Shown here: positions 1 through 22,912 of the stretch, piece after piece
Position numbering within the stretch: position 1 is the first letter of the stretch
Layout of the letters: each line of letters starts with the position of its first letter
From: Gemmatimonadota bacterium
Lineage (GTDB): Bacteria > Gemmatimonadota > Gemmatimonadetes > Palauibacterales > Palauibacteraceae
NCBI GenBank assembly: GCA_963666735.1
Contig: OY762926.1
Span: 1,312,001-1,376,000, forward strand
Direction of reading: 5' to 3'
Length of the DNA stretch: 64,000 nucleotides
The notes under the pieces: model-generated
What the model was told of the DNA's origin: nothing
The model's database searches: none
Seen by the model: only the letters and a program-made list of their open reading frames with translations
Made by a program: the position numbers and the translations under genes

Positions 1-196
1 TGCCGTCGGGCAACCACACGTCGACGGCAATGCGGACGCCGTCCCGCATGGGGACGTGGAGCGCCTGGTTGCGCGTGAGCGCGCTCACGGGGGCCTCACC
101 CGCGCTATCGCCGGGAGTGGAAACGCCGTCCCCGCAGGCCAGCCCGGCCAGTGCCGCCAGCCCCACCGCTACGGAGGAGGGCCGCCCCAGGCTCAC
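1..196 (-). CDS. CocE/NonD-family hydrolase lipoprotein, 5' part (runs off the window)
   Basis: Hand translation: GTG overlaps the stop of the upstream gene. VSLGRPSSVAVGLAALAGLAC (lipobox) ... HVPMRDGVRIAVDVWLP is the typical N-terminal CocE/NonD motif. Not in the ORF track. Confidence 0.75.
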   Translation of the reverse strand, partial: MSLGRPSSVAVGLAALAGLACGDGVSTPGDSAGEAPVSALTRNQALHVPMRDGVRIAVDVWLPDG

Positions 197-1932
197 CAGG
201 CGATCGCGTGGCCGTCGCGGCGCGGATCGGACCCGCCCGCCAGAGCGCCCGTCTCCGCGTCCCGGTACACCCCCTGTACGCCGCCGAGATTGCCGGGCTC
301 CACCAGGTTGTGCCCTCGATCGGCGAGCTCTCCGTACACCTCCGGTGGGAAGCCCGCCTCCAGGTACGTGACCGAGTCCTCCGGAATCGGCGTCAGGCCG
401 CCGCCCCGGTTGAGGCACATCCGGGGTGACGCAATCGCAAGCTGCATGTCCATCCTGCCTGCCGTCAGCTTCGTGATCACCTGCCCGACCGTCTGCGGGA
501 TCGTGTAGCCGCCGGCGGCACCGACCGCCGCGACGAGATTCCCGTCCTTCATGACCACGCACGGCGTCATCACGCCCTTCGCCTTCTGCCCTCCCGCGAT
601 GTAGTTGACATGCCCTTCCTCGAGGGAGAAGCCGAACATGTGGCCGTTGTTCAGGAAGATCCCCGTGTCGCCCGCGATCACACCGCTCCCGTAGAGGGCG
701 ACGAGCGACTGCGTGAAGGCGACGGCGTTCCCCCAGCGGTCGGCGGAGGAGAGGCTCGTCGTCCCGAAGAACGGGAGCGGGGCGCCCGAGAAAGAGGCGA
801 TGCGGCCGGGATCGATCGTCCCCCGCTGCTCGTCCGCGTATTCCTTCGAGATGATCATGTCGACCGGGATCTCCGCGTCTTCGTTCCCCGTGTTGTACCG
901 TTCGTCATCGATCAGGGCGAGCCGGTTCGCCTCGAGCCACAGGTGGGCGAACTCGGAGCTGTAGAGGTCCATGTTCGCGAGGTCGAAGCCGTCCATGATG
1001 TTGAGCGCCTGGAACATCGTCATCCCGCACGATCCCGGCGGCATGGCGTACAGGTCGTGTCCCTGGAAGGTCGTCGCGATGGGCTCTCGCCACGCGACCT
1101 CGTATCCCTCGAGATCGGCCTTTGTCATGTGGCCGCCGTTCTCGGCGAGGAAGGCGACGATGCGGTCTCCGATCTCGCCCTTGTAGAGGTCGTCGGCGCC
1201 TTCGCGCGCGAGCCGACGCATGCTGGCGGCGAGTTCGGGCTGCTTGATGATCTCGCCCATCCGCGGCGGACGGCCGTTCGGGAACATGATCCGTGTGCTC
1301 GACGGGTAGTGCCCGAGCTTGTCCGCGCTCCCGGTGGTGTGGAGTTCATCGAACTTCGAGATGACGAAGCCGTCCTCGGCGAGCTGGATTGCGGGTTCGA
1401 ACACGTCGCCGAGGCTCATCGTCCCGTAACGCTCGAGCACGGCGGCCCAGCCCTTGAAGGCGCCGGGCACGATCGGCGCCCTGTAGCCCATCTCGACATC
1501 ATCCGGCGTGATCGTGCTCGCCGAAGATGCCGCGGGCGCCCGTCCGAGCGCGTCCAGGCCGACGACCCGGTTCTCCTCCGCCAGGTAGATGAGCATGAAG
1601 CCGCCGAAGCCGCCGAGCCCGGACATGTAGGGCTCGGAGACGTTGAGCGTGGCGGAAGCGGCGACGATGGCGTCGATCGCGTTCCCGCCCTGCATCATGA
1701 TCGTCGTGCCGGCGAGCGAGGCGTAGTAGTCGGCGGCGGCGGTCACACCGCGGCGACCCCACACGGTCCCGTGCGCGGGGCCGAGCAGACCGGGGACGTT
1801 CGAATCGCCCGCCGGGCCCCATTGTCCGATCCCGTCCGGGGGCGCGGCGGCCGTCTCGGGGGCGCGGCAAGCGATCAGACCGGATCCGGCGGCGGCCGCG
1901 GCGGAGGTGGCGAGGAAGTCTCGGCGTCTCAT
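193..1932 (-). CDS. ggt: Gamma-glutamyltransferase-family Ntn hydrolase, Tat lipoprotein (copy 1)
   Basis: MRRRDFL Tat motif, LIAC lipobox, GGNAIDA, nucleophile segment GTTSLSSADRWGNAV, C-terminal [17 protein letters not shown] upstream of ATG 1932. Confidence 0.9.
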   Translation of the reverse strand: MRRRDFLATSAAAAAGSGLIACRAPETAAAPPDGIGQWGPAGDSNVPGLLGPAHGTVWGRRGVTAAADYYASLAGTTIMMQGGNAIDAIVAASATLNVSEPYMSGLGGFGGFMLIYLAEENRVVGLDALGRAPAASSASTITPDDVEMGYRAPIVPGAFKGWAAVLERYGTMSLGDVFEPAIQLAEDGFVISKFDELHTTGSADKLGHYPSSTRIMFPNGRPPRMGEIIKQPELAASMRRLAREGADDLYKGEIGDRIVAFLAENGGHMTKADLEGYEVAWREPIATTFQGHDLYAMPPGSCGMTMFQALNIMDGFDLANMDLYSSEFAHLWLEANRLALIDDERYNTGNEDAEIPVDMIISKEYADEQRGTIDPGRIASFSGAPLPFFGTTSLSSADRWGNAVAFTQSLVALYGSGVIAGDTGIFLNNGHMFGFSLEEGHVNYIAGGQKAKGVMTPCVVMKDGNLVAAVGAAGGYTIPQTVGQVITKLTAGRMDMQLAIASPRMCLNRGGGLTPIPEDSVTYLEAGFPPEVYGELADRGHNLVEPGNLGGVQGVYRDAETGALAGGSDPRRDGHAIAW

Positions 1933-1969
1933 GGGACGGCTCCTGGGCAGGGGGGATCGCGCGACCCTC

Positions 1970-1999
1970 ATCCTAGACTCCGAGTTGCCCACCGCTCAA
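1970..1999 (-). promoter_or_regulatory. Sigma70-like promoter of ggt copy 1 (TTGAGC-N18-TAGGAT)
   Basis: Hexamers and spacer length are conserved upstream of all three paralogs while the spacer sequence has diverged. Confidence 0.7.
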
Positions 2000-2022
2000 G
2001 ACCCTTGTTGGCGCCCGGCCGG

Positions 2023-2062
2023 CGCATCGGCGGCACACCCTCCCGAGCGCGCCGCCGATGCG
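2023..2062 (-). terminator. GC-rich hairpin downstream of ggt copy 2
   Basis: CGCATCGGCGGC / GCCGCCGATGCG 12-bp stem; no strong U-tract. Confidence 0.45.
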
Positions 2063-2075
2063 TCGGGTGAGAGCC

Positions 2076-3818
2076 CTACCAGGCGATGGCGTGACCATCC
2101 CGCCGTGGGTCGGACCCGCCGGCCAGGGCGCCGGTCTCGGCATCGCGGTACACGCCCTGCACGCCGCCCGGGTTTCCGGGCTCGGCCAGGTGGTGGCCGC
2201 GGTCCTCGAGTTCGCCGTACACCTCGGGCGGGAAGCCCGCCTCCAGGTACGTGACCGAGTCCTCCGGGATCGGCGTTCGCCCCCCGCCCCGGTTGAGGCA
2301 CATGCGCGGCGAGGCGATCGCGAGCTGTATGTCCATTCCGCCCGTCGTCAGCTTGGTGATCACCTGCCCCACCGTCTGCGGGATCGTGTAACCGCCCGCG
2401 GCGCCTACCGCGGCGACGAGGTTGCCGTCCTTCATCACGACGCACGGCGTCATGACGCCCTTCGCCTTCTGGCCGCCTTCGAGGTGATTGACGTGCCCCT
2501 CCTCGAGGACGAAGCCGAAGGTGTGGCCGTTGTTGAGGAAGATCCCGGTGTCGCCGGCGATCACCCCGCTGCCGTAGCCGCTCACGAGCGACTGCGTGAA
2601 GGCGACCGCGTTCCCCCAACGATCGGCGGACGAGAGGCTCGTCGTGCCGAAGAAGGGGAGCGGGGCCCCGGAGAAGGAGGCGATGCGGGCGGGGTCGATC
2701 GTCGCCCGCTGCTCATCCGCGTATTCCTTGGAGATGATCATGTCGACGGGAATCTCGACATCTTCCTTCCCAGTGTTGTAGCGGTCGTCGTCGATGAGGG
2801 CGAGCCGGTACGCCTCGAGCCAGAGGTGCGCGAACTCCGAACTGTAGAGGTCCATGTTCGCGAGGTCGAAACCGTCCATGATGTTGAGCGCCTGGAACAT
2901 CGACATTCCGCACGAGCCAGGCGGCATCGCGTACAGGTCGTGCCCCTGGAAGGTCGTCGTGATCGGTTCCTTCCACGCGACGTCGTACGACTCCAGGTCG
3001 CCCATCGTCATGTGGCCCCCGTTCTCGGCGAGGAAGGAGACGACGCGCTCGCCGATCTCCCCCCTGTAGAAGTCCTCCGCGCCTTCGCGGGCGAGGCGGC
3101 GCATGCTCGCGGCGAGGTCGGGTTGCCGGATGATCTCGCCCATGCGAGGGGGGCGGCCGTTCGGGAACATCACGCGGGTGGTCGACGGGAACTGTCCCAG
3201 CTTCTCGGCAGCGGCGCCGTTCGTGTGGATCTCGTCGAAGCGCGAGACGACGAACCCGTCCTCGGCGAGGCGGATCGCGGGCTCGAATACGTCGCCCAAG
3301 CTCATCGTCCCGTAGCGTTCGAGGGCGGCGGCCCAGCCCTTGAAGGCGCCGGGCACGATGGGCGCCTTGTAGCCCGCGGCGAAATCGTCGAGCGTCATCG
3401 TCGCCGGAGACGAGGCAGCAGGCGACTTGCCGAGCGCGTCGAGTCCGACGACCCGGTTCTCCTCGGCGAGGTAGATGAGCATGAAGCCGCCGAAGCCCCC
3501 GATGCCGGACATGTAGGGCTCGGAGACGTTGAGCATGGCCGACGCGGCCACGATGGCGTCCACGGCATTTCCGCCCTGCATCATGATCGTCGTGCCGGCA
3601 AGCGAGGCGTAGTAGTCGGCGGCGGCCGTCACGCCCCGCGCCCCCCACACGGCCCGGTGCGCGGGTCCGAGCAGGCCCGGGACGTTCGAATCTCCGGCCG
3701 GGCCCCATTGCCCACCGCCGGAAGTGGCCGGGCCGGCGGTCTCGGGAGGCCGGCATCCGATGAGACTGGATCCGGCGGCTGCGGCGGCGGAGGTGGCGAG
3801 GAAGTCTCGGCGTCTCAT
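2076..3818 (-). CDS. ggt: Gamma-glutamyltransferase-family Ntn hydrolase, Tat lipoprotein (copy 2)
   Basis: Same motifs as copy 1; LIGC lipobox. Confidence 0.9.
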   Translation of the reverse strand: MRRRDFLATSAAAAAGSSLIGCRPPETAGPATSGGGQWGPAGDSNVPGLLGPAHRAVWGARGVTAAADYYASLAGTTIMMQGGNAVDAIVAASAMLNVSEPYMSGIGGFGGFMLIYLAEENRVVGLDALGKSPAASSPATMTLDDFAAGYKAPIVPGAFKGWAAALERYGTMSLGDVFEPAIRLAEDGFVVSRFDEIHTNGAAAEKLGQFPSTTRVMFPNGRPPRMGEIIRQPDLAASMRRLAREGAEDFYRGEIGERVVSFLAENGGHMTMGDLESYDVAWKEPITTTFQGHDLYAMPPGSCGMSMFQALNIMDGFDLANMDLYSSEFAHLWLEAYRLALIDDDRYNTGKEDVEIPVDMIISKEYADEQRATIDPARIASFSGAPLPFFGTTSLSSADRWGNAVAFTQSLVSGYGSGVIAGDTGIFLNNGHTFGFVLEEGHVNHLEGGQKAKGVMTPCVVMKDGNLVAAVGAAGGYTIPQTVGQVITKLTTGGMDIQLAIASPRMCLNRGGGRTPIPEDSVTYLEAGFPPEVYGELEDRGHHLAEPGNPGGVQGVYRDAETGALAGGSDPRRDGHAIAW

Positions 3819-3854
3819 GGGACAGCTCCTGGGCAGGGGGGATCGCAGACTCTG

Positions 3855-3884
3855 ATCCTAGGTTGCGGATCGCTCGCCGCTCAA
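3855..3884 (-). promoter_or_regulatory. Sigma70-like promoter of ggt copy 2 (TTGAGC-N18-TAGGAT)
   Basis: Conserved across paralogs. Confidence 0.7.
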
Positions 3885-3985
3885 GACCCGGCACACGGCG
3901 ACGGGAACCCGTGCAATAACCGCAGGACTCCCGCCTATGGACTATCGTAGACGGCATCCAGCTCATTCTTCCAGGATATCAAAAC

Positions 3986-5515
3986 GTGCTCGACCCCATC
4001 ACATCCAACCCGAGCCACCCCGACGGTTCGGTCATCGCCGCCCTCCGGGGCCTTCAGGGACGCGCCACCGTAGGCGATGTCGTCTCCGCCACCGGATTGC
4101 CGGACCACGAGGCCGAGGTCGCCCTGAGGTCCCTCCTGGAGACGCACCGCGGCCACCTCGAGGTCTCCGATTCGGGCGACCTCCTCTACCGGTTCGATCC
4201 CACGCTCATCGAACGGGACGCGGAACCGTTCCGGGCGCGCTTCCGCAGAGTCGCCTGGTCGGCCTTCCAGGTCGGCTTCAAGATCTGGACGGCCGTCATG
4301 CTGGTCGTCTACTTCGTCATCTTCGTCCTGATTCTGATCGCGCTGATGACCGCCAACCGCGACGGACGCGGCTCCGGCGGGCGCAGGGGCTTCAGCCTGG
4401 GGGACTTCTTCATCCTCCACTGGCTTCTCGGGGGCCGCGGGTGGGACCGGAGGGGCCTCTACTACGGCGACCGCCACGCCAGGCGGCTCCCGAAGGACGC
4501 CCGGCCGCCGTTCTACAAGAAGGTCTTCGCCTTCATCTTCGGCCCCGAGGAGCCCAGGCCGACGCAGCTCCAGAAGGATCGTACGGTTGTCCAGTTGATC
4601 CGGGCGCGGAAGGGCGTCCTGACGTCGTCGGAGTTGATCGAGCACACCGGCCTGCCGGTCGACGCCGCCGTCGAAGAAATGGGACGCCTCACCGGTGCCT
4701 ACGGAGGCGACCCGCGGGTGTCGGACGCGGGCGAGGTCGTGTACGCCTTCCCCGAGCTGATGAGAAGCGCCCACGGAGAGGTCCGCGCACGAGAGCCCGA
4801 ACCGGCATGGATGCGGTTGGAGTACCCAAGAAAGCTGACGGGCAACAGCGGCGGGGCCAACGTCGGCATCGGCGCCATGAACGGCTTCAACCTGGCGATG
4901 GCGAGCGTGATCGGGCTGCCCTCCTCGTTCGATCCGGTCACCTTCTACGGGCTGGGCGTCGTGCCGTTCACCTACAGCAGCCTCTTCTTCGCAATCCCCA
5001 TCGTCCGCTCGTTGACCCTGGCCGGGGAGAACCGCGCGCGTATGCGGCGCAACGTGCGGCGCCTGCTCGTGGGCCTGGTCTACTCCCGCAGCGTCGGGAC
5101 CGGTCAGTGGGTCGCAGCTGGCGACGCGATCCGCCACGTGACGCGCGCGCTCGATGGCCAGCAGGCGCCGCCGAAGATGATCCTGGCGGAGCTGGAACGC
5201 CTGGCGGCCGAGTTCGACGCGGAAGTGGAGGCGGAGGACGAAGGGTTCAGGTATCGTTTCCCCGCGATACGCGAGACCTTCGTCGAGGCGGAACTCATGC
5301 GGCGCCGGCTGAAGCTCCAGGATCAGCGTCTCGGCCGCATCGTCTACGCAACCTCCGACACCGCCGCGGAGGCCTCACGACGAGATCTGGCCGCCTTCGA
5401 CCGCGAACTCGAAGGTGCCCAACTCGACCTCTCCCGCTACCTCCCCTCCCACACCCGGGTAGGCTACGAGGAAGATTTCGAGGTGGTCATGGATCCGGAC
5501 CCGGCGAGGACGTAG
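3986..5515 (+). CDS. Conserved hypothetical membrane protein with repeated winged-helix-like units
   Basis: 509 aa with hydrophobic segments and three related motifs: GHLEVSDSGDLLYRF, GDPRVSDAGEVVYAFPE, AEVEAEDEGFRYRFP. Confidence 0.75.
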   Translation: MLDPITSNPSHPDGSVIAALRGLQGRATVGDVVSATGLPDHEAEVALRSLLETHRGHLEVSDSGDLLYRFDPTLIERDAEPFRARFRRVAWSAFQVGFKIWTAVMLVVYFVIFVLILIALMTANRDGRGSGGRRGFSLGDFFILHWLLGGRGWDRRGLYYGDRHARRLPKDARPPFYKKVFAFIFGPEEPRPTQLQKDRTVVQLIRARKGVLTSSELIEHTGLPVDAAVEEMGRLTGAYGGDPRVSDAGEVVYAFPELMRSAHGEVRAREPEPAWMRLEYPRKLTGNSGGANVGIGAMNGFNLAMASVIGLPSSFDPVTFYGLGVVPFTYSSLFFAIPIVRSLTLAGENRARMRRNVRRLLVGLVYSRSVGTGQWVAAGDAIRHVTRALDGQQAPPKMILAELERLAAEFDAEVEAEDEGFRYRFPAIRETFVEAELMRRRLKLQDQRLGRIVYATSDTAAEASRRDLAAFDRELEGAQLDLSRYLPSHTRVGYEEDFEVVMDPDPART

Positions 5516-5519
5516 AGGA

Positions 5520-7259
5520 CTACCAGGCGATGGCGTGGCCGTCGCGTCTCGGGTCCGACCCGCCGGAGAGGGCGCCCGTCCCCGCGTCGCGATGCACCGC
5601 CTGCACGCCCCCCAGGTTGCCGGGCTCCGCAAGGTAGTGGCCGCGGTCCGCCAACTCCTCGTAGACCTCGGACGGGAACCCGGCCTCGAGATAGGTGACG
5701 GAGTCCTCCGGGATCGGCGTCCGGCCGCCGCCCCGGTTCACGCACATGCGCGGCGAGGCGATCGCGAGCTGCATGTCCATGCCGGCCACCGCGAGCTTCG
5801 TGATCACCTGGCCGACCGTCTGCGGGATCGTATAGCCGCCCTGGGCCCCGACGGCCGCGAACAGGTCTCCGCCCCTCATCATGATGCAGGGCGTCATCAC
5901 GCCCTTCGCCCGCTTGCCGCCCTCGAGGTGGTTCACATGACCCTCTTCGAGCACGAAACCGAACATGTGGCCGTTGTTGAGGAAGATCCCGGTGTCCCCG
6001 GCGATCACGCCGCTCCCGTACGCGTTGACGAGCGATTGCGTGAAGGCGGCCGCGTTCCCCCACCGGTCGACGGTGGAGAGGCTCGTCGTCCCGAAGAACG
6101 GAAGCGGGGCCCCGGAGAAGGAGGCGACGCGCATCGGATCGATTTTCGCGCGCTGCTCGTCCGCGTACTCTCGCGAGATGATCCTGTCGACGGGGATATC
6201 CACGTCTTCCTTCCCGGTGTTGTACCGGTCATCGTCGGCGAGGGCGAGCTTGAACGCCTCCAGCCACAGGTGCACGAACTCCGAGCCGTACAGATCCATG
6301 TTCGCGAGGTCGAACCCATCCATGATGTTGAGCGCCTGGAACATCGACATCCCGCACGAACCCGGCGGCATGGCATGCAGGTCGTATCCCTGGAAGGTCG
6401 TCCTGATCGGCTCTCTCCACTCGACCTCATACGACTCCAGATCCGCCTTCGTCAGGTGGCCGCCGTTCCCGGCCAGGAAGGCGACGATGCGGTCGGCGAG
6501 TTCGCCCTTGTAGAGGTCGTCGGCCCCGGCGCTGGCGAGGTGTCGCATGCTGGCCGCGAGATCCGGCTGCTTGATGATCTCGCCCATGCGGGGCGGGCGC
6601 CCGTTGGGGAAGAACACGCGCGTCGTCGACGGGTATCGGCTCAGCTTGTCCGCACTCGACGCCGTGTAGCGCTCGTCGAACTTCGAGATCACGAAGCCGT
6701 CCTCGGCAAGCTGGATCGCGGGCTCGAACAGGTCGCCGAGACTCATCGTGCCGTAGCGCTCCAGGGCGGCGGCCCACCCCTTGAAGGCCCCGGGCACGAT
6801 CGGCGCCTTGTAGCCCATGGCGAAGTCGTCGAGCGTCATCGTCTCCGGCGACGAGGCGGCGGGCGACTTGCCGAGCGCGTCGAGACCGACGACGCGGTTC
6901 TCCCCGGCCAGGTAGATGAGCATGTAGCCGCCGAAGCCCCCGATGCCGGACATGTAGGGATCCGACACGTTCAGCGTGGCGCACGCGGCGACCATCGCGT
7001 CGATCGCGTTCCCGCCCCGCATCATGGTCTGCGTGCCCGCGAGCGACGCGTAGTAGTCGGAGCAGGCCGTCACCCCCGTGCGGCCCCACACGGTCCCGTG
7101 CGCGGGGCCGGCCAGACCGGGCACATGCGAGTAATCGCCCGACCCCCACTGCCCGGAAGTGACGGGCGGCGCGGCGGCGGTCTCGGGAGGGCGGCAAGCG
7201 ACGAGGCTCGATCCGGCGGCGGCCGCGGCGGACGCGGCGAGGAAGTCTCGGCGTTTCAT
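5520..7259 (-). CDS. ggt: Gamma-glutamyltransferase-family Ntn hydrolase, Tat lipoprotein (copy 3)
   Basis: MKRRDFL Tat motif, LVAC lipobox, GTTSLSTVDRWGN. Confidence 0.9.
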   Translation of the reverse strand: MKRRDFLAASAAAAAGSSLVACRPPETAAAPPVTSGQWGSGDYSHVPGLAGPAHGTVWGRTGVTACSDYYASLAGTQTMMRGGNAIDAMVAACATLNVSDPYMSGIGGFGGYMLIYLAGENRVVGLDALGKSPAASSPETMTLDDFAMGYKAPIVPGAFKGWAAALERYGTMSLGDLFEPAIQLAEDGFVISKFDERYTASSADKLSRYPSTTRVFFPNGRPPRMGEIIKQPDLAASMRHLASAGADDLYKGELADRIVAFLAGNGGHLTKADLESYEVEWREPIRTTFQGYDLHAMPPGSCGMSMFQALNIMDGFDLANMDLYGSEFVHLWLEAFKLALADDDRYNTGKEDVDIPVDRIISREYADEQRAKIDPMRVASFSGAPLPFFGTTSLSTVDRWGNAAAFTQSLVNAYGSGVIAGDTGIFLNNGHMFGFVLEEGHVNHLEGGKRAKGVMTPCIMMRGGDLFAAVGAQGGYTIPQTVGQVITKLAVAGMDMQLAIASPRMCVNRGGGRTPIPEDSVTYLEAGFPSEVYEELADRGHYLAEPGNLGGVQAVHRDAGTGALSGGSDPRRDGHAIAW

Positions 7260-8977: not shown

Positions 8978-9187
8978 GACTCACCTACATGACGCCCCCA
9001 ACGCGATGTCGCAAGAACCTCGCCGCAGTCTCATCGGACAGGGACGATCTCATCCGAGGGTTCCAGAGCGGCGTCACGTGAAGGCATTTCGGATGTTCAG
9101 CACGGGCACGGGGCGGCACAGCTCACTGAGACAGGGTGCCTTCGATCCGCTCGCTGCGATGCACGCCTCAGCACGCGACGTTTTCGC

Positions 9188-9216
9188 TTGACCACCACAT
9201 GTTGTGTAGCTATCAT
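9188..9216 (+). promoter_or_regulatory. Sigma70 promoter of the CBASS operon (TTGACC-N17-TATCAT)
   Basis: -35 at 9188-9193, -10 at 9211-9216, each 5/6 match to consensus, optimal spacing. Confidence 0.75.
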
Positions 9217-9239
9217 TTTCGGTCCACCAGATGTTGTGG
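9192..9239. promoter_or_regulatory. Tandem NrdR-box-like operators
   Basis: CCACCACATGTTGTGT (9192-9207) and CCACCAGATGTTGTGG (9224-9239) match the conserved positions of acaCwAtATaTwGtgt; start-to-start distance 32 bp. Confidence 0.7.
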
Positions 9240-9384
9240 GGGGCAGTGATATCGTCTGGAACGAAGCCGGTAGAAGGAACGCGGGTTCCCCCTCGTTGAA
9301 CCGCAATCCCCTTCAGCGGTTCAGGTCCCAGTTTTTCTTGGTCGGGCTGAGGCTACGTGTCAGCCCAAACGAGGAGGTTTGCCA

Positions 9385-10497
9385 TTGTCAACGGTTCTCG
9401 ACTCGCACGCCACCCATCTCAGTTTCCTGCTGGACGGGATCTGCCGTGCGATCCAGCTGACCGCGACCCAGCAGGAGGACGCCAAGCGAAAGTACGAAGC
9501 GGTGTCGAAGTGGCTTGCGGACCCCCACAGCGCGCTACAGCGATTCAATCCGCAGGTCTTTCCTCAGGGATCCGTCGCGATCGGTACCACAACGAAGCCT
9601 GTGGGGCGTGAGGACCACGATGTCGACTCCGTCGCGCTGCTCCACGGGAGCTTCGATGCGATGGAACTCTACGAGTTAGTCCATGATCGGCTCAGGGAGC
9701 ACGCGGATTACCGCCGGATCCTCGAGCCGAAGAAGCGCTGCCTTCGGCTGAACTACGCGGGAGACATTCATCTCGACGTGCTGCCAGCGCAGCCCCGTCG
9801 GTGGATCACCGAAACCGGACTGCTCGTGCCCGACCGGGAACTGCAGGACTGGTCTCCCAGCGATCCAAAGGGCTTCATCGCCTGGTTTGGCCACATCTCC
9901 CGCCGTCCATACCGGGAAATCAGACTCGGCGTCGAACCACTCCCCGAGCCCGAGGACGCCGACGCCAAGAGCCCGTTGCAGCGTGCCGTTCAGCTGCTGA
10001 AGCGTCGGCGCGACGTGTTCTTCAACGGCAATCAGGATGCCGCGCGGTCCATCGTCCTCACCACGCTCGCGGCCCGATCGCACGGAGGAGAACGAACTGA
10101 AATCGAAGCCCTCACGGCAGCACTCGATTCCATGGCCTCCGAGATATCGGCCAGCCCGGGAATCCTGGTGGTTCTAAACCCGACGCTACCCGACGAGAAT
10201 TTCGGCGATGGCTGGGATGCGAACTCATACGCGCAGTTCGAGCGGTTCGTGCGCAGTTTCCGGGACGAGGTCAGCAAGCTCCAAAGACTCTCTGGCCCCG
10301 ATCTTACGGCAGAACTGAGCCGGATGTTCGGCGAGCGGCCGGCGACCCGAGCCGCCGAGCAGTGGGGCGAGCACCTACGCCGCCAACGTGAAGCCAAGCG
10401 TCTGCACGTTAGTAGCATCGGCCTAGTGACAGCTGCCGGACGCGGGACACAACCCGTGCCGCCACACAACTTCTACGGCGGTGCGAGTAACCCGTGA
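9385..10497 (+). CDS. CBASS CD-NTase (cGAS/DncV-like cyclic oligonucleotide synthase)
   Basis: FPQGSVAIGTTTKP...DHDVD nucleotidyltransferase motif, HLDVLPA, SDPKG, C-terminal HNFYGG-ASNP. TTG 9385 lies 7 nt after a GAGGAGG RBS (the ORF track starts at 9379). Confidence 0.92.
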   Translation: MSTVLDSHATHLSFLLDGICRAIQLTATQQEDAKRKYEAVSKWLADPHSALQRFNPQVFPQGSVAIGTTTKPVGREDHDVDSVALLHGSFDAMELYELVHDRLREHADYRRILEPKKRCLRLNYAGDIHLDVLPAQPRRWITETGLLVPDRELQDWSPSDPKGFIAWFGHISRRPYREIRLGVEPLPEPEDADAKSPLQRAVQLLKRRRDVFFNGNQDAARSIVLTTLAARSHGGERTEIEALTAALDSMASEISASPGILVVLNPTLPDENFGDGWDANSYAQFERFVRSFRDEVSKLQRLSGPDLTAELSRMFGERPATRAAEQWGEHLRRQREAKRLHVSSIGLVTAAGRGTQPVPPHNFYGGASNP

Positions 10498-10946
10498 GGC
10501 GACGTCCGCCACGGTTCCGGCGCCGTAGTGTGGGATTGCACGAGCAGCGCGCCGCGATGCTGTATCGGTGGCCAGACTTCACATCCCATGTCGACGCGGG
10601 TCGTCTTACGTGCGAAGGGCGACTCCGTCCGACTCCGCTCGGTGCAAACTACCGTGTCCGAGTGCGATACACGGTGGGCCGACGCCCTCGAGCGTCGGTG
10701 CTCGATCCCCGGCTCCGTCGCCGAGAACAACAGCCACACGAACCGATCCCTCACACGTTCAATGATCGGTTTCCCGGCCGGGAGGAACCGTGCCTGCACT
10801 ACCGGGGCGAGTTTCGGTCGGATCGGCTGCTCGCCGGCACGATTCTACCCTGGTTCGCCGAATGGCTCGCTCACTACGAGATATGGCGCGCAACCGGAGT
10901 CTGGACGGGAGGGGGCGTGGAACACCGGAACGGAGCAAAGCACTGA
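10494..10946 (+). CDS. CBASS E2-like protein (type II-short, E2-only Cap2)
   Basis: GTGA-coupled to the CD-NTase; PH..., PCLH, ILPWFAEWLAHYEIWRATGVWTGGG signature. Confidence 0.85.
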   Translation: MRRRPPRFRRRSVGLHEQRAAMLYRWPDFTSHVDAGRLTCEGRLRPTPLGANYRVRVRYTVGRRPRASVLDPRLRRREQQPHEPIPHTFNDRFPGREEPCLHYRGEFRSDRLLAGTILPWFAEWLAHYEIWRATGVWTGGGVEHRNGAKH

Positions 10947-11956
10947 GCGATCGGGCCTCGGGGCGTACTCGTCCGTTCGAACCGATTGGGGACCGTCGAT
11001 TCCGAATCCTGAGTCTCGACGGCGGTGGCATCAAAGGCACGTTCACGGCGTCCGTCTTGGCGACCATCGAGGAGATGACCGAGAAGAATGTAGCCGAGCA
11101 CTTCGACCTAGTCGTCGGGACTTCCACCGGCGGGATCATCGCACTGGCTCTGGGTCTCGGTCTCCCGGCCCACCGAATTCGGGATCTCTATGTGAAGGAC
11201 GGTCCGCAGATCTTCGGAGCGACGGGTGTTCGCGGATCGTTTCGCAGATTCTTCCGGGCGAAGCACGATTCGAGACGGCTGCGGGAGGCGCTCAATGGGG
11301 AGTTTGGCGCTTGCCGATTCGGTGAGTCCACGACTCGCTTGGTGATTCCCTCGTTCAATGTCGTGTCCGGCGATGTACATCTGTTCAAGACCTCCCATCA
11401 TCCTCGCTTCAAGCGTGACTATCTCTGGAAGGTGAAGGACGTGGCGATGGCCACCTCCGCAGCCCCGACATACTTCTCGATCTTCCATCATGAGGCATCC
11501 GGTCTCCGGCTCGTTGATGGCGGGGTGTGGGCGAACAATCCGGTCGCGGTTGGCGTGAACGAGGCAATCGGCGTGCTCAGGTGCGCACTCGATGGCATCG
11601 AAGTCCTCAGCATTGGCACGACGGGGGCTCCGTTTCACATCAAGCCGAAGAAGCGACATGGCGGCCTACTCGGATGGGGGCGTAGTTCGATCCGGCTTCT
11701 GATGGAGGCCCAAACGCAGGGCATGGCTGGACTCGCGCACGCAATCACACAGCATGATCAGCGGCTACTCCGAGTCGATCCGACGGTCGCGCCGGGGCGA
11801 TTCTCCTTGGACGATCCGAAGCAGATCTCGGAACTCAGGGCGGTTGGGGAGGAGGCGGCGAGACACGCGGAGCGGCGAGTCAATGAACGCTTCCTTGACG
11901 AGCCCGCCCCGGCCTTCGAGCCCTATCGAGTTCTTTCGACCGAGGCCCGAAGCTGA
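10943..11956 (+). CDS. Patatin-like phospholipase CBASS effector (CapV-like)
   Basis: LDGGGIKG, GTSTGG, DGG motifs. Start uncertain: an in-frame CTG overlaps the E2 stop and follows GGAG. Confidence 0.88.
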   Translation: MSDRASGRTRPFEPIGDRRFRILSLDGGGIKGTFTASVLATIEEMTEKNVAEHFDLVVGTSTGGIIALALGLGLPAHRIRDLYVKDGPQIFGATGVRGSFRRFFRAKHDSRRLREALNGEFGACRFGESTTRLVIPSFNVVSGDVHLFKTSHHPRFKRDYLWKVKDVAMATSAAPTYFSIFHHEASGLRLVDGGVWANNPVAVGVNEAIGVLRCALDGIEVLSIGTTGAPFHIKPKKRHGGLLGWGRSSIRLLMEAQTQGMAGLAHAITQHDQRLLRVDPTVAPGRFSLDDPKQISELRAVGEEAARHAERRVNERFLDEPAPAFEPYRVLSTEARS

Positions 11957-12038: not shown

Positions 12039-13430
12039 GGTTCTTCGCTGTTTCAGGTGGGTAGTTTGAAGTCGAGTTTGCCGCACACGAGATAGGCGAT
12101 GGTGATGAAGTTCTCGGCGGTTCGATAGCCCCGGGCCCTGGCCTTGGCGGCCTGGACGAGCGAGTTGATGCCCTCGATCATGCCGTTGGTGATCCTCGAG
12201 CGGAACCAGAGGAGGATGCCGTCCCGGTGCTTCCCGATCGTCTTCGCCGCGTCGATGACGGGTTGGAGATCGCTCTTGCCGGCCCGGAAACACCATCTCT
12301 CGAGGTAGACGCCGGCCAGCCGGGGCGGGAGATCCCAGAACGCCTCGAAGGCGAGCTTGAACCGGTAGGCGAGAGCCGTCTTCAGGTTCCGCCGCGACGG
12401 ATCGAGCAGTTCGCCGATCCACTCGCGCTGGGAGGCGGTGAGCCCGCCGCGCCTCTTGAGCCACAGGTAGCGGGTGCGGTTCAGCTCGGGGCGCTCCCTG
12501 CGCTCGGCCCGCCTAACCTCGTCCACCGCCCGGTTCATGAGCCGCTGGACGTGGAAACGGTCGAAGGTGATCCCGGCCTCCGGGAACGCCTCCCGCGCCC
12601 CCTTCATGTACGCCGCCGACATGTCCATGCAGAGATCCCGGACGCTCCCGGCCCGGCCCCCGTGCGCCTCGAGGTCCTCCCGGAACAGGCTCACGACCGA
12701 GGCGTCGCGCCCCGGCGTCGCGTACAGCAGCCGCGAACGGTCCAGGTCGGCGAACAGCGTGATGTAGTCGTGGCCCCGCCGGCACGCCGTCTCGTCCACG
12801 GCCACCGCGCGCACCGACGAGAAGTCCGCCTCCGCCCGCGCCCGTCCCACGTGGCGCTTCAGAAGCCGCCACAGCCGCGTGTCGTGCTCGCCCACCAGCC
12901 GGGCCACCGCCCTGACCGGCATCTCCCGCGCCAGGGCCACCACCAGAGCCTCGAACCACAGCGTGAAGCCCGAACCCGGCTCCGCCCACGGCACCCTCGC
13001 CCGCCTCACTCCGCACGCCGGACACCTCACCCTCGGCACCCGCGCGTGCAGGTAGGCCCGGTGCTGAAAGAAGTCCAGGTGCCGCCAGCGCTTCGGGCTC
13101 GAGTCGTGCGCCTTGCAGCCCCCGCGCCCACACGAGCGGCAGTCGAACGTCCCGCCCGGGCTCGAAGTCCAGATGCAGGTCCAAGCGGCGCTCCGCCGCG
13201 TCGAACTCCGTCCGCTTCACCCGCCACGGCCACTCGAGTCCCAGCGCCCGCTCGAACAGTCCCCGCTCCGCCATGCCGCCGTCCCGCCCGGCCGCTCCGA
13301 GTCCCCCAACCGCCCCCGGCCGGCCCCGGAGACCACCGGGCGCGTCACGGACCCGCGAGGGCACCCGACGGCCACCGCCGCCGGCCCCGCCACTCTACCA
13401 CCCCTCATCCACCCCGAACAGCGAAGAGCC
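12039..13430 (-). mobile_element. ISL3-family insertion sequence, 1392 bp
   Basis: Imperfect terminal IRs GGTTCTTCGCTGTTTCAGGTGG / GGCTCTTCGCTGTTCGGGGTGG; 8-bp target duplication TGAAAGAA at 12031-12038 and 13431-13438. Confidence 0.93.
12053..13274 (-). pseudogene. ISL3 transposase with a single frameshift near 13155
   Basis: N-terminus MAERGLFERALGLEWPW... is in one frame. The zinc finger and DDE core (VDET, CMDMS, FDRFHV, TNGMIEGINS) are in another. Confidence 0.85.
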
Positions 13431-13843
13431 TGAAAGAAGGTGTTCCGCTTGCTGAGACCCACCTTGGTGTCGCCCCAGAGGTTTCTTATCTCCGCGTAAG
13501 TCGTTACCGACACGATGAAAAAATCCAGCGTGGCGGTGGGGTCGCCGAGGCGCCGCTCGATCCCCTTGATCTTCTGGTGGAACCGGACCTTCGGGCCGTA
13601 AGGCGCTTCTTGACGCAGCCCCTTCGGATCGATGAACGCGATCCGCTGGCGGCCTTCGCCGGCGGTCCAAAGGACGAAATCCGGGTGGAAGTTCGAGGTC
13701 TCGAAGAAGCTCACGCCGCGCCTGCAACTCATGTTCCGCATGAGCTGAAGGTCCGTGCTTTCGAGTCGATCTCGGTTATCCGCGCAGAACCGCTCCAGAT
13801 CTTGGACGAGCGTGTACTCCCCGCGTTTAGGTGGAGGGGGCGG

Positions 13844-14104
13844 CACGATGTCGTCGGCGATCCCTCCTTCGGCGACGCCATCCTCGACCGCCTCCTCAAC
13901 AACGCTCACAGGATCACCCTCAAGGGCGCTTCCATGACGAGGCTCTACGACTCGACGAAGGCCGGTACAAGCCGGTAGACTCCAACCCTCGAGCCCGACA
14001 CCCCGGCCCCGTCATGACCCTCCGCTCCTCCAAGGTGATCGGCATGCGTCGGAATCACCGATTCGGCTTGCCGGAATCGGTGGTCGGCATCGTCGGAATA
14101 CGCA
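13844..14104 (+). mobile_element. istB: IS21-family remnant: istB 3' end plus right end
   Basis: HDVVGDPSFGDAILDRLLNNAHRITLKGASM...* (stop 13978), then repeated CGGAAT-containing motifs ending ...CGGAATACGCA (terminal CA). Confidence 0.8.
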
Positions 14105-14190
14105 CGACCGCTCCCTGGCGCTACGGATCGGAGCAGTACAGATTATTACGTTTGCGATGTTCACCATGAGATGCCAAGAACGTTACCAAG

Positions 14191-15189
14191 ATGATATTTC
14201 GACACCCAGACATACCAGAACTTACAAGCAGATGTCGGCAGGGAACCGTCATTCTCGTATCGGCCCCTTTCTACAGTGAGGAGGGGTTACAGTGGATCTT
14301 GCCGTCGAATGAGAGCGCCGTTGAGTTCTGGACCCGACTCAACCCACACGATTGGGCGGTCGGTGTGTCCGATCCTCCAGCCCTCTTACGGTATCTTGAC
14401 GAAATAGGCGAAGATCGTGTTTCTCTGCGGGTTCACCGAGCTTTGCACGCTAAGATCTATCAGGTTGACGGGGACTGGGCGTGGATCGGCTCTCCTAACC
14501 TTACACGATCTGCGTTTACGAGCAACATTGAATTGGTTGCCGAATTGGACGCTGCGGAAAGCAGGCTCCTTGAGAACTTTGTCGAAGATCTTCGCAGTAG
14601 TTTGAAGGAGATATCTCTCGCAACCCTTCGCTCCTTTATCGACGTTACGAAGGATGCAATCGACCAGTTCGACGATGCTCGTTTTTTCGAGACTGAAGAT
14701 TTCAAAGCAGCCGTCGCTTTGGCGGACGAAGTCCTTGCTCCCAATCCAACGCTTCGGCCTTCCGACAAGTTACCTGCTCTCGAGGATTTCGTCGCTTTCA
14801 TCGAGCCGCTGCGTGGCGACGTGCCGAGCGTTGTCAGGGATCACCATAGCAACGAAAGTGGCCAGAATAGGCAGGGGCACGTTAGGCAATCCTACTACGC
14901 GTTATTTCTATTTCTTACCAATCCAAGAGGAAGTCGACTCGTTGAGGAGCTCGGGATGTGTGACCTAGATGTATATCCCACCTTACCTCCAGATTTTTTG
15001 AACACCTGGGTTCGTTTTCTCGACGATAACGCCTCGCACCACAATGATCATATCGGATACTCGTTTTCCGTTCTCCGCAATATACTTCCAGAACGTATGG
15101 GAGGATATCTCACGGCTGGAGGGGGAGCAATCGGCACCTTTACGCGCATGGTGCCACTCGTTGCACGCTTTTGCGTGAGTAAACACTGA
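14191..15189 (+). CDS. PLD-superfamily (single HKD) nuclease-like protein
   Basis: LHAKIYQVDGDWAWIGSPNLT...NIE motif, N-terminal SAPF; markedly lower GC than its flanks. Confidence 0.8.
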   Translation: MIFRHPDIPELTSRCRQGTVILVSAPFYSEEGLQWILPSNESAVEFWTRLNPHDWAVGVSDPPALLRYLDEIGEDRVSLRVHRALHAKIYQVDGDWAWIGSPNLTRSAFTSNIELVAELDAAESRLLENFVEDLRSSLKEISLATLRSFIDVTKDAIDQFDDARFFETEDFKAAVALADEVLAPNPTLRPSDKLPALEDFVAFIEPLRGDVPSVVRDHHSNESGQNRQGHVRQSYYALFLFLTNPRGSRLVEELGMCDLDVYPTLPPDFLNTWVRFLDDNASHHNDHIGYSFSVLRNILPERMGGYLTAGGGAIGTFTRMVPLVARFCVSKH

Positions 15190-15228
15190 ATGCGTCCGAT
15201 CCCAATGCGTGAGGCTGATTCGTCGATT

Positions 15229-18200
15229 TCATGAAGCGGGCACGCCGATGGCCGTGAGGATGTCACTGATGTAGGTGGCGCGATCCTCCTGGAAGAAGAT
15301 GTTACGCTTGGCAAGATCCGTCTTGTTCTCGCTCCACAGGTTCTTGAGGTCGGCGAACGACGTGACCGAGACGATGCACGAGTCCAACGTGACGGTGGGG
15401 TCGCCAAGCCGCCGTTCAATCTCTTTGATCTTCTCATGGAACCGGACCTTTGGGCCGTGCGGCGGCTCCTGCCTCATCCCCTTCGGATCGATGAACGCAA
15501 TGCGCTGGCAGCCCCTCCCCGTCGCCCAGAGGATGAAATCCGGATGGAAGTTGGAGGCCTCGAAGAAACTCAGACCGCGCCCGCGGCTCATGTTCCGCAT
15601 AAGATGAAGATTTATGCCATCCAGTCGGTCTCGGTTGTCCGCACAGAACCGCTCCAGATCCTGAACGAAGGTGTACTCGCCGCAGTTGAGTGGAGCAGGC
15701 GATACCCTAGCCAAGCTGTTGTTCGTCGTCGAAAGGAGAGGTCGGTAGAGATGGCGATCAAATGATATCGTCCTCACGTCGCCGTGTTGGTGCGGGTCGC
15801 GACGGCCGGCTTCCGCGTCTTCGATGAGCTGATCGATGGCCGCTGCAATCTCCGCGTCGGCCTCCGCATCTCCAGATCTGCCAATCTCGATCTCGTACCC
15901 CGTCTTGAGGGCCTCTTGGATGGCCACCGCCGGATAGCTGGGGTCGTCATAGTCCAGATCGCGATACTCGAGGTGTCGTGCCTCCCACGCCTGGCGACTC
16001 GCCGCGTAGAAGCGCGCCGCGTACTTCTTGAGTAGAGCGAGAGTGATGTCGCGCCAGACGCGGACCTTCCCGTAGTCGTCGAATTCCAGCTCGAGCGCAG
16101 GAATGCGGAGCCGATACCAGCTGGAGCCCACCTCGCCGCTGTCGTCAAGAAGCGCACGAATCGCTTCTTGGGATACGGTCAGATTGTGCCAACCCCGCTC
16201 CACCTTATGGCGTTGCAGGTCGATAAATAGTTCGTCCAAGTCGAGATGTTCGACGTGCCTGCGCGTGAGCAGCCCTTGGTGCGGCGCCTCTCGCACGGAC
16301 TCTCCTCCGGCTCCTTCTGAGCGGCGCACACGAATCTTCGGATACCAATCGACGACGACCGGATGCCGCAACAGGTAGGTATCAACTTCGGGGGAAGCAC
16401 CGGCACCCGGGGGCCGCAGTATGGCGTTCGGGCCGATCCTCGTGAAGGCGCTCGCGGGGTCCGTTCCCGCCACGGTTTCCTTGAGGCGGATCACCTTCAG
16501 CGCGGGTGCAGGGAGCGGTTCCAGTGTGACGGGTACGAAGCGGGGCTTCCGCTCGGTGTCAAGCCCTTCCTCCTCCAGAATGGCTCTGAACTGCGCCATG
16601 TAGTTGGCCCGTACGCCGAAGACTTGGAGAGTTTCCAAGGGGTTCAGGGAAACCGGCGGCTTTCCGAGAGCAGGCCCGAGCCGGGAACTACGCTTCAACG
16701 TCCAGTCCCGACCCTTGAGCCGGACGCCGCGGCCGAACAACTGAATGATCGTCGCCCCCTCGGTGCTCCCCACACGCATAAGGCCCATGGAACTAACGCG
16801 CCAGCTGTTCCAACCTTCGTTGAACTTCTTCGCGCCCACGAGGAGGTTCACCGTCGAATCGTCGTTGTTGATGCCGTGGAAGAGGGAGCCGGCGAACTGC
16901 CCGTCCACAACACGGAAACCCAACCCATCGAGGTGCTTGGCCAGCTTCGCGGGATCCCCCACGTTGATGACGCCGAACGGCTCATTGTCTCCGACGGTCA
17001 GCGCCAATTCTCCCTGTGCGCCCTCAAGGCGCGCGATGTGAAGCGATCCGCCGTCCGGAGCGTTGAAGAGGAGTTGGAGGGTCTCATCATAGACTGCATC
17101 CGCCGACAAGCCCTTCGACTTGAGCGCGACGAACTGCCCCTTGAACAGATCTTTCCCTTCGCTCGCGACCAGCCCGTCTGCCAGTATCTCGCGGATGCGG
17201 CTGACCACCGAAACGCGGTCCGATACGTAGTTGGCCAAGAACCCTAGTATATCCGCGATATCTGAGGCTTCCTTCGTGCTGAACCCGGCCACAACCCGGC
17301 TGCCGACGAACACCCACAGGGGGCGTTCAAGGTTGTACGGTCGCAGGGCAGAGCCACCCTCGCGGAAGAGGTGCTGCTGCTGAAAGAACGTTAGCAGCGC
17401 GGCGGTCAGGTACTTCGTGCGCCAAAGCTCGTTGCCGCGCTCCTGGCCCGGTTTTTCCTCCAGATTGAAGATCTTGAAGTCCTTGCCAAAGCCATCGTCG
17501 TGGAACCAGCGATACGAGTAATCGAACAGCGTCGCGCGGGCGTAACGGTCCGTCAGATCCCTGTTCCCCTTGACGGCCTGGGCAAAGGTCGCGGAGTACT
17601 CGAACGAGAACCCGTCGGCGCACAACTCGTCCCGCCTCCGAATCCACGCACCTGCCCTGCCCGACGAGGCCCCCCGGTGCCCCTCGTCAACGAGGACGAG
17701 GTTGTTGCCCTCGAACGCCTCGACCGGAACTGTCTTCTCGCCCCTACCGGCATCCCTGTCGTTCTCGTCCCGAAGCTTGTGCACATCCAGCACCTCGACC
17801 ACGGCCCCCGACAACAGACTGCCGTTCCTGTTGAACAATTCGGCGTTGATTCCGGCCGCTCGAAACTCCCGGATATGCTGCCGGGAGAGGCCCTCGTTCG
17901 GCGTAAGAAGGATCATGCGGTTCAGCGTGTGGATACGCCCGCCGGCCTTGAGGTGCCGCCGGTACTGGAGGATGTTGGCGTGCATGAGCAGCGTCTTGCC
18001 ACTGCCCGTCGCCATCTGGAACGCCACCTTGTTGAGTTGCGTGGCCGGATCCCCGTCCGGGTTGAACGCCGCGACTCGCTCGGCCTCCGGCAGAGATGCA
18101 TTGAACTGCTCCGCGTGGGACGCGAGTTCCGCTAGCAGCCCCGCCGGGTCCTCGAAGTACCGATCCAAGTAGATCTCCGTGAAGAGCAGCGACAGGTACT

Positions 18201-18525
18201 GGAAGTACTTCCACTTCAGCTCCGGCTCGCCTCGCTTGATACGCGGACGGTTAAGCCGTTGCGTGACTCCGACGATTGTCTGGTCATGCTCCAAGAGCCG
18301 GTCGTCCGGGAGCAAGGATCGCTGTTGCTCGGGTACATGCAGGCGCAGTGCTCGGTGCAGGCGGTGCACGTTGTCGGCATCCAATCCCTCAAGCGCCTCG
18401 TCTCGTAGATTGGCGGCCAACTGGTCGAAGGTCTCGCAACCAAACAGGCCAAGCAGCCACCGGTGGACGACGAGCTTGCGCGAGAAGGGGAGACGCGGCC
18501 TGGTCACGCGCCGTCCAGGCGTCAA
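15229..18525 (-). CDS. res: Type III restriction-modification Res subunit (SF2 helicase + PD-(D/E)xK nuclease)
   Basis: MATGSGKT, LVDEGH, EYSATF, QLFGRGVRL, C-terminal HPDF...FIDPKG. Confidence 0.92.
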   Translation of the reverse strand: MTPGRRVTRPRLPFSRKLVVHRWLLGLFGCETFDQLAANLRDEALEGLDADNVHRLHRALRLHVPEQQRSLLPDDRLLEHDQTIVGVTQRLNRPRIKRGEPELKWKYFQYLSLLFTEIYLDRYFEDPAGLLAELASHAEQFNASLPEAERVAAFNPDGDPATQLNKVAFQMATGSGKTLLMHANILQYRRHLKAGGRIHTLNRMILLTPNEGLSRQHIREFRAAGINAELFNRNGSLLSGAVVEVLDVHKLRDENDRDAGRGEKTVPVEAFEGNNLVLVDEGHRGASSGRAGAWIRRRDELCADGFSFEYSATFAQAVKGNRDLTDRYARATLFDYSYRWFHDDGFGKDFKIFNLEEKPGQERGNELWRTKYLTAALLTFFQQQHLFREGGSALRPYNLERPLWVFVGSRVVAGFSTKEASDIADILGFLANYVSDRVSVVSRIREILADGLVASEGKDLFKGQFVALKSKGLSADAVYDETLQLLFNAPDGGSLHIARLEGAQGELALTVGDNEPFGVINVGDPAKLAKHLDGLGFRVVDGQFAGSLFHGINNDDSTVNLLVGAKKFNEGWNSWRVSSMGLMRVGSTEGATIIQLFGRGVRLKGRDWTLKRSSRLGPALGKPPVSLNPLETLQVFGVRANYMAQFRAILEEEGLDTERKPRFVPVTLEPLPAPALKVIRLKETVAGTDPASAFTRIGPNAILRPPGAGASPEVDTYLLRHPVVVDWYPKIRVRRSEGAGGESVREAPHQGLLTRRHVEHLDLDELFIDLQRHKVERGWHNLTVSQEAIRALLDDSGEVGSSWYRLRIPALELEFDDYGKVRVWRDITLALLKKYAARFYAASRQAWEARHLEYRDLDYDDPSYPAVAIQEALKTGYEIEIGRSGDAEADAEIAAAIDQLIEDAEAGRRDPHQHGDVRTISFDRHLYRPLLSTTNNSLARVSPAPLNCGEYTFVQDLERFCADNRDRLDGINLHLMRNMSRGRGLSFFEASNFHPDFILWATGRGCQRIAFIDPKGMRQEPPHGPKVRFHEKIKEIERRLGDPTVTLDSCIVSVTSFADLKNLWSENKTDLAKRNIFFQEDRATYISDILTAIGVPAS

Positions 18526-18794
18526 CGGTCGTCCCTTCGCCCGCCCGCAGTCACGCGGCGGTTGGCCCTATCGATGTAGGTCCGCATTCCCTCGTTCCTC
18601 CCGCCCAAACTGGCATCCCGCCGCTCGCACACATCAATGGCGCGGCCCAACACCTTCCGGTCGACCATCTCTTGGTCCTCCAACAACGGCGAGGGATTTG
18701 AGCGCGATGCCAACGCCGCCGTACACCTACCTACCGGTTGCTTCCACGTCTCGATCTCCTCAGCAATCTCCTCATCGGCGAAAGTCACCGACAT
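18522..18794 (-). CDS. Hypothetical 90-aa protein between mod and res
   Basis: AGGGG RBS-like sequence; its stop overlaps the res TTG start. Confidence 0.5.
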   Translation of the reverse strand: MSVTFADEEIAEEIETWKQPVGRCTAALASRSNPSPLLEDQEMVDRKVLGRAIDVCERRDASLGGRNEGMRTYIDRANRRVTAGGRRDDR

Positions 18795-18816
18795 GATCCC
18801 CTAGTAACCTCCCCCG

Positions 18817-22515
<3,699 letters not shown>

Positions 22516-22525
22516 ACGGGCGGTC

Positions 22526-22912
22526 TCATGCGTCGCAGTGCGCGAAGATGTCGTAGTCGGCCAAAGGCCACCAAGTATGATGCGGCGGGCGTCCGATCTG
22601 CTGGAGGCGGCCCGCGCCTTCGCGGAGCAGAACGCGGCAAACCGACCGACCGCGAAGCGTCGGAAACCGCAGGGCCCTCTCGGCGTCGATTTGCTCCGCA
22701 AGCACGGATAGGCCGCGGACCCGATATTCCGATACGCCGCCAAATACTCGATCAGGGTGTTCGGCCCGCTGCGAGCGGAAATCACAGTCCGTGGGCGGCG
22801 GCGTGCGAACCAGCCTGAAGACGTATCGGCCGTGGACGATCTCCTCCGAGGTTGCTGGAGGGCAGTTCGGCGGTAGTGCCTCTCGATAGCTTGGGTGGCT
22901 GTCGCGCGCCAT
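22526..22912 (-). CDS. Hypothetical protein, possible ADP-ribosyltransferase-like fold
   Basis: LPPNCPP...VFRLV...DF...GLSV...HHTWW; R-S-H spacing as in Tse2-like ART folds (inference). Confidence 0.6.
   Translation of the reverse strand: MARDSHPSYREALPPNCPPATSEEIVHGRYVFRLVRTPPPTDCDFRSQRAEHPDRVFGGVSEYRVRGLSVLAEQIDAERALRFPTLRGRSVCRVLLREGAGRLQQIGRPPHHTWWPLADYDIFAHCDA

Follow-up and report, generated by a model that had tools for sequence, protein, structure and literature searches.

An NrdR-type operator predicted on the promoter of an E2-type CBASS operon in a Gemmatimonadota genome

In this work we analysed 64,000 nucleotides of the genome of a Gemmatimonadota bacterium (assembly GCA_963666735.1, contig OY762926.1, positions 1,312,001 to 1,376,000). 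This whole stretch is called the window, and coordinates refer to it unless a contig or genome handle is given. At 9385–11956 the window carries a three-gene antiphage signalling system based on cyclic oligonucleotides (CBASS), with intact genes for a nucleotidyltransferase of the cGAS/DncV-like kind (CD-NTase), a stand-alone E2 protein and a patatin phospholipase. Two 16-bp boxes lie on the predicted promoter of this operon, and their sequence, spacing, rank in the genome and promoter position support the prediction that they form an operator for NrdR, the repressor of ribonucleotide reductase genes.

The operon is classed as an E2-type (short type II) CBASS by its CD-NTase motif, its lone E2 and its effector gene, and neither an E1 nor a JAB gene is annotated among its genes, all of which are on the forward strand. 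The CD-NTase gene (9385–10497), whose frame is open from 9379, matches Pfam SMODS and DncV-like and the PADLOC cyclase (E 1.9e-87); its QGS motif, DxD motif and third Asp are intact and invariant across 36 homologs in the alignment columns, and the protein ends with a glycine followed by a short extension. Its start is most likely the second TTG (9385), which lies 7 bases behind GAGGAGG and gives 370 amino acids, as in P0001. The E2 gene (10494–10946; PADLOC E2, E 6.4e-35) encodes His87 and Cys100, which are invariant in 6 homologs and align with the solved Serratia marcescens E2 (PDB 8hsb_B, E 5e-10). The effector gene (10943–11956) has a frame open from 10790 and matches Pfam Patatin (E 5.6e-26) and the PADLOC phospholipase effector (E 5.9e-102). 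Its translation shows what we take to be the glycine loop, GTSTG and DGG motifs of patatins. The most likely start is the CTG at 10943, which overlaps the E2 stop (10943–10946), rather than the GTG at 10790: a GGAG lies 7 bases upstream of this CTG, and homologs start with GTG or ATG at this place. The S. marcescens E2-CBASS (10.1101/2022.05.25.493364; PDB 8hsb) shares with this operon the C-terminal glycine and short extension of the CD-NTase and the stand-alone E2 with a catalytic cysteine, but it is distant in sequence, as the E value of the E2 match indicates, and the passages cited from that report mention no NrdR control.

Upstream of the CD-NTase gene, a predicted sigma-70-type promoter on the forward strand (9188–9216) is composed of the −35 hexamer TTGACC (9188–9193), a 17-bp spacer and the −10 hexamer TATCAT (9211–9216), and it is the sole promoter-like site that a scan found between 8000 and 13000 (shuffled sequences gave 0.4 on average). 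An earlier note on this DNA, made from the letters alone, had read this promoter as pointing at the CD-NTase and had placed on it two NrdR-like 16-mers with six conserved positions, a reading that stands. Predicted box 1 (CCACCACATGTTGTGT, 9192–9207) spans the last two bases of the −35 hexamer and 14 of the 17 spacer bases, and predicted box 2 (CCACCAGATGTTGTGG, 9224–9239) is at the predicted start site, near 9223. The two are 32 bp apart from start to start, with a 16-bp linker, and both keep C4, A6, A8, T9, T11 and G13. The boxes agree with all the binding rules of a 2026 mutational study of NrdR (PMC13584703): C4/G13, A6/T11, a linker of 15–16 bp and an A+T content between C4 and G13 of at least about 63%, which is 5/8 in each box. 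The predicted leader (9223–9384, forward strand, about 160 nt) contains two local hairpins, with no significant structure (fold z-score −1.14) and 0 Rfam matches. The leader of the nrdJ gene of this genome (L002:3440–3545) contains several TTTTCCACA-like repeats, which we take to resemble DnaA boxes; the CBASS leader has none. In addition, both contigs of sequencing run X7 break at 9212–9241 with a 30-base overlap, and this stretch may recur in another context in that sample.

The NrdR core pattern has 432 single matches in the 3.98-Mb genome, and pairs of such matches at spacings of 16–60 bp are rare: two at 32 bp, none at 31 bp, and one each at 20, 21, 34 and 44 bp, where about 0.05 strict pairs are expected by chance per spacing. 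The only two pairs at 31–32 bp are that of the CBASS promoter and that of the nrdJ promoter, which is 215 bp upstream of the nrdJ open frame. nrdJ is the only reductase gene found in the genome, in which nrdD has no match; the statement of the earlier note that no nrd gene lies nearby agrees with these searches (nrdJ, nrdD), which found no neighbouring nrd gene or remnant. Boxes were scored with a matrix made from 86 distinct boxes from relatives and the genome's own nrdJ operator, leaving out the CBASS site. With this matrix, in which the core columns are circular because the training sites were picked by the same core pattern while the other ten columns are not, CBASS boxes 1 and 2 rank 2nd and 4th in the genome (scores 21.7 and 20.5) and the nrdJ boxes 7th and 1st (18.3 and 22.7), so that the CBASS boxes compare well with native nrd boxes, a comparison that the earlier note had proposed. 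In the next best 31–32 bp pair of the genome the weaker box scores 4.8, and four strong single boxes elsewhere have no partner. The pattern is characteristic of this lineage, being present in 111 of 121 genomes of the order, and the reversed control in 1 of 121. The presence of nrdR, on which the earlier note made its proposal depend, was also established: the gene lies 26 kb from the CBASS operon, and its product scores above the family cut-off, has a zinc ribbon and an ATP-cone, and retains D15 and R17, through which NrdR recognises C4/G13 (PMC13584703). NrdR proteins also bind foreign boxes (PMC13584703).

We consider it probable, from the predicted operator and the presence of nrdR, that the host NrdR represses the CBASS operon through the paired boxes and releases it when deoxyadenosine triphosphate (dATP) falls or when NrdR is drawn away. 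NrdR loaded with dATP and adenosine triphosphate (ATP) binds DNA as a tetramer and represses, while the form that carries only ATP does not bind (PMC13584703; PMC12051234). A dATP/ATP-bound tetramer on 9192–9239 would block the −35 region, the spacer and the start site; a drop in dATP, or titration of NrdR, would free the promoter, and the CD-NTase, E2 and phospholipase genes would be transcribed together with nrdJ. The toxic system would thus be kept low while DNA precursors are plentiful and would rise when they are consumed by fast host or phage replication. Transcription would only prime the system, since the CD-NTase would still require its own trigger; the next step would be for the E2 to act on the CD-NTase by processing and conjugation, as it does in S. 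marcescens (10.1101/2022.05.25.493364), and the second messenger would switch on the phospholipase. As to the purpose of such control, we regard an infection alarm, the purpose that the earlier note had suggested, and a coupling to growth as roughly equally probable.

Several observations weigh against this reading. Many lytic phages raise deoxynucleotide (dNTP) pools rather than lower them, and phages that carry their own reductases may raise dNTPs and thereby strengthen repression. The A+T content of both boxes (5/8) is at the lower limit for binding (PMC13584703). The genome has a second CBASS-like operon, composed of a patatin gene, a CD-NTase gene and a further gene (G000:C1:2975871–2979242, L218), which belongs to another clade, has a relative in G010 and lacks an NrdR pair, as do the CD-NTase loci of three congeners. 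Strict pairs are absent from the 160 CD-NTase loci that were fetched first (0/160), and a softened matrix applied to the 1.5 kb upstream of 200 distinct loci (151 + 49) detects pairs in only 8 (about 4%). With a looser published pattern, 3 and 7 of the 200 upstream regions have pairs at 31 and 32 bp, versus 1–14 at other spacings, hence no excess. Several non-defence genes of the family also lie behind NrdR-type pairs, which indicates that defence is not a special target of NrdR, and among the matches listed for the Acidobacteriota, 0 of the 70 pairs examined clearly precede a defence operon.

The eight soft pairs are nevertheless not spread evenly, as six are at 31–32 bp, one at 30 bp, one at 29 bp and none at the other 22 spacings (binomial p 5e-6, a value to be read with thresholds set after looking and loci that are not independent), and matched downstream regions of the same 200 loci contain none. 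The earlier note had proposed to look for tandem boxes at homologous CD-NTases and other defence operons, and the outcome is divided: soft pairs and two strict ones, in genomes G710 and G033, speak for such sites, while the absence of strict pairs from the first 160 loci and the lack of excess with the loose pattern do not. The five closest proteins are P0002–P0006 (73–89%); the closest homolog with available DNA (L054, 52% identical, with a different upstream gene), which is the only other such locus in the well-supported clade of the window CD-NTase, has a perfect and a weak box 32 bp apart. In a different CD-NTase clade, a CD-NTase/E2/NucC operon of G710 is preceded by a strict pair, and the homologous locus of G427 has a half-degenerate pair, one perfect box and one weak box. 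The operons of L166 and L194 begin with the effector gene, and there the pair lies in front of that gene. Native nrdJ operators of G145, G146, G148 and G710 are similarly degenerate, and nrdR is present in G145, G146, G710, G427 and G033. Two loci with non-canonical spacing, L093 (29 bp) and L161 (30 bp), were excluded from the support, and in L397/L532, where the contig begins 128 bp before the boxes, the pair may serve a divergent target. In a quick tree built from 159 proteins the eight box-bearing rows are scattered, with as many changes as rows (8 each), a distribution that suits repeated gain or frequent loss.

NrdR-type pairs are also found beyond CBASS. A second strict pair is present in 13 of 36 related genomes: six are just behind nrdJ, three are chance-like, two flank a small regulator gene, one is before a DUF1592 gene and one is that of G033. 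In G033, a congener (L035:4002–4049 / L219), the strict pair lies over a near-consensus promoter, with a layout unlike that of the CBASS operon. The genes behind it are a DUF5343 gene and those of an Hma defence operon, in which ATPase and GmrSD-like genes are embedded. In other genera of the family, pairs precede small conserved genes of unknown function. Three such genes without Pfam match, each behind its own pair (L353:6470–6724, L353:1901–2227 and L223:5133–5432, with their relatives), are candidate members of the NrdR regulon on the basis of these sites; one of them is right after nrdJ and one is divergent from cold-shock-type genes. Two genomes of one genus have strict pairs (L346:4983–5030 and L348:4997–5044) that separate divergent genes from a polysaccharide-biosynthesis gene, the latter being seen in L346. 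In the Acidobacteriota sample, strict pairs occur in 70 of 151 genomes; among the matches listed, many are at nrdJ or nrdD and the rest at varied genes, and two of the 70 flanking open reading frames (ORFs) gave generic PADLOC matches. One strict pair of this sample (L613:2487–2533) is upstream of an ArdC anti-restriction gene. Judging from these predicted sites, the link with defence is real but uncommon, and the NrdR regulon is wider in this lineage.

We also scanned viral contigs with a 14-base pattern, comparing pairs at 32 bp with a 36-bp control. Among the matches listed, both boxes reach at least 11 bits in 86 of 124 distinct sites at 32 bp versus 18 of 107 at 36 bp, and the 42 downstream ORFs that were scanned include 2 for NrdD, 1 for a DNA polymerase and 6 for large terminases, and others for portal or head proteins. 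On the viral contigs L225–L345, 32-bp NrdR-like pairs are common, and what follows them is often not an nrd gene but one for a terminase, a portal protein, a head protease or a DNA polymerase.

How NrdR control might benefit the cell can be viewed in two ways. NrdR could be a guarded housekeeping sensor: to switch on the host reductase, phages would deplete dNTPs or titrate NrdR with operator copies that they carry, and bacteria would repeatedly have put the same operator on defence operons, CBASS among them, whereby such manipulation would trigger immunity too. Boxes on two CD-NTase clades and on the Hma operon, together with the phage pairs before packaging, head and polymerase genes, fit this idea, which we nevertheless judge rather unlikely. 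Alternatively, NrdR would repress the operon but the benefit would be growth coupling, CBASS being made in replicating cells, which are worth infecting, and off in resting ones, with infection not the inducer. That repression by NrdR sets in as dNTPs accumulate on a stop of replication (PMC13584703), that the NrdR regulon of the family has non-defence genes, and that control of CBASS by population state is known for HapR (PMC10653837) all make growth coupling a possibility to be taken seriously, if below even; it leaves the correctly spaced NrdR-like phage pairs unexplained.

Other explanations concern the operator itself. The island could have captured an nrdJ-type promoter simply because it needed one; the boxes would then be free of selection, even if NrdR may bind them to this day. 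The CBASS and nrdJ promoters indeed have the same hexamers at the same places and the same box layout; they are identical at 40 of 54 bases, the best value among the oriented pairs of relatives that were compared, and the best BLASTN match of the CBASS upstream region within the genome is the nrdJ promoter (27/31 bases, E 0.002). In addition, in L093 nrdJ is immediately followed by a homologous CBASS, and NrdR-like boxes with a spacing of 29 bp lie between the two (3732–3776), an arrangement that is a possible route of operator capture, and the scatter of box-bearing loci on the tree agrees with such events. However, the next best pairs reach 39/54 and the flanks of the two operators are unrelated, so that the likeness to nrdJ is largely forced by the shared consensus, and capture of the nrdJ promoter and convergence are indistinguishable. 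The distal linker and box 2 are not the same as in nrdJ, yet this box is still near-optimal, and the different promoter layouts of G033 and G710 point to repeated recruitment. Box spacing is also kept in related contigs of runs X7 and X9 (about 88–93% alike), which cover the operator and have five indels, at 9173–9181 and 9240–9249, and none between the boxes, in a comparison based on indels. We therefore hold a passenger operator to be improbable. Binding of the palindromes by another regulator, such as one of island or phage origin, is less probable still and would be surprising: palindromic operators are common on defence promoters, and CapW, CapH/P and CapK/S are local (PMC13373217), but the CBASS boxes match the nrdJ operator as well as that operator matches itself, no WYL regulator was found in the genome, and no helix–turn–helix or other regulator family was found among the 50 scanned of the 87 short ORFs listed for 7000–30500. 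Finally, the ideas that the match is due to chance, or that the operator belongs to a lost nrd gene or to the divergent gene, are largely refuted. The earlier note had itself named the last two, describing the divergent gene as ComEC-like; it encodes a metallo-beta-lactamase/LTD protein whose start codon (8977) is just 215 bp from the boxes. Its ownership of the operator was rejected, as 24 of 35 congeners carry this gene and none of them has a pair within 1.5 kb upstream of it, while the closest congener is similar only as far as about 9017. The presence of the neighbour gene without boxes in these 24 relatives indicates that the boxes arrived with the CBASS island. A lost nrd gene was rejected as well, since nrdJ has no second match or remnant in the genome and nrdD none at all, and chance accords poorly with the low number of strict pairs expected at each spacing.

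The CBASS operon is at the edge of a defence island of lower GC content (62% versus 68–71%), which also contains an ISL3 transposase gene and a type III-like restriction–modification pair. On the 3′ side of the operon, 12053–23259 carries the ISL3 transposase gene, a PLD-domain gene and the type III-like res/mod pair, and the end of the restriction gene recurs there in part (13217–13909). Three tandem, closely related genes, presumably gamma-glutamyltransferase-like, occupy 193–7259. The island is rare: a protein search found no ortholog of the CBASS in 60 relatives, and a profile search found a homolog in 2 of 144 other genomes, with no box pair near the gene at either locus. Among the homologs that have a named record, the closest comes from a Gemmatimonadetes metagenome-assembled genome; the host itself is uncultured. 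Island DNA occurs in sponge-metagenome and other sequencing runs, and no RNA dataset is among the runs listed as containing it.

The predicted operator resembles those of Streptomyces coelicolor nrdRJ and nrdAB and of Escherichia coli nrdAB, nrdHIEF and nrdDG (PMC13584703; PMC12051234), which likewise consist of two 16-bp part-palindromes with a 16-bp linker and six conserved positions and overlap the RNA polymerase site, an overlap that is predicted here; the CBASS boxes further share with S. coelicolor nrdRJ the C at position 5 and an A+T content of 63% (PMC13584703). The difference is that the reductase operators regulate nrd genes while this one sits on an anti-phage system. NrdR is known to act beyond nrd genes, at Pseudomonas aeruginosa topA (PMC4409342) and in a peripheral regulon of lactic acid bacteria (PMC3616900), with no defence gene named in the main-text passages. 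topA has a single box and is activated (PMC4409342), in contrast with the paired boxes and proposed repression of the CBASS operon. The repression proposed here has a parallel in CapW/BrxR, CapH with CapP, and CapK with CapS, which keep the expression of a toxic immune operon low in the absence of a stress signal (PMC13373217); they are encoded beside their operon and sense single-stranded DNA, whereas here the dATP/ATP state would be the signal and a chromosomal housekeeping NrdR, encoded at a distance of 26 kb, the regulator. With no regulator gene found beside the operon, in the searches for WYL in the genome and among the 50 nearby ORFs, this CBASS falls outside that class. The view of the earlier note that CBASS regulators are dedicated and locally encoded thus needs qualification: none is visible here, as it said, but a host-wide precedent exists, since HapR raises CBASS transcription in Vibrio cholerae (PMC10653837). 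For the VSP-1 CBASS of that species, a host-wide regulator and a nucleotide-precursor pathway feed the system, as we propose here, but neither is a dNTP-sensing repressor, as HapR is an activator that follows cell density and the effect of folate is on the enzyme (PMC10653837).

In agreement with the earlier note, which knew of no such case, we found no report of NrdR control of CBASS or of any defence system in the literature searched, a scope that leaves out most subscription journals and the supplementary regulon tables; one review mentions nrdR only as a transposon hit. The operator is known and the system is known, and the wiring between them is apparently undescribed. Defence systems must be informed of an infection, and suicide systems must be kept silent by the cell; the transcriptional inputs known for this are local DNA-damage sensors and quorum sensing. 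The NrdR operator, if the proposed control is true, would add the nucleotide pool to these inputs, through a sensor that is found in most bacteria and requires no extra gene, and it would widen the NrdR regulon from the supply of DNA precursors to immunity.

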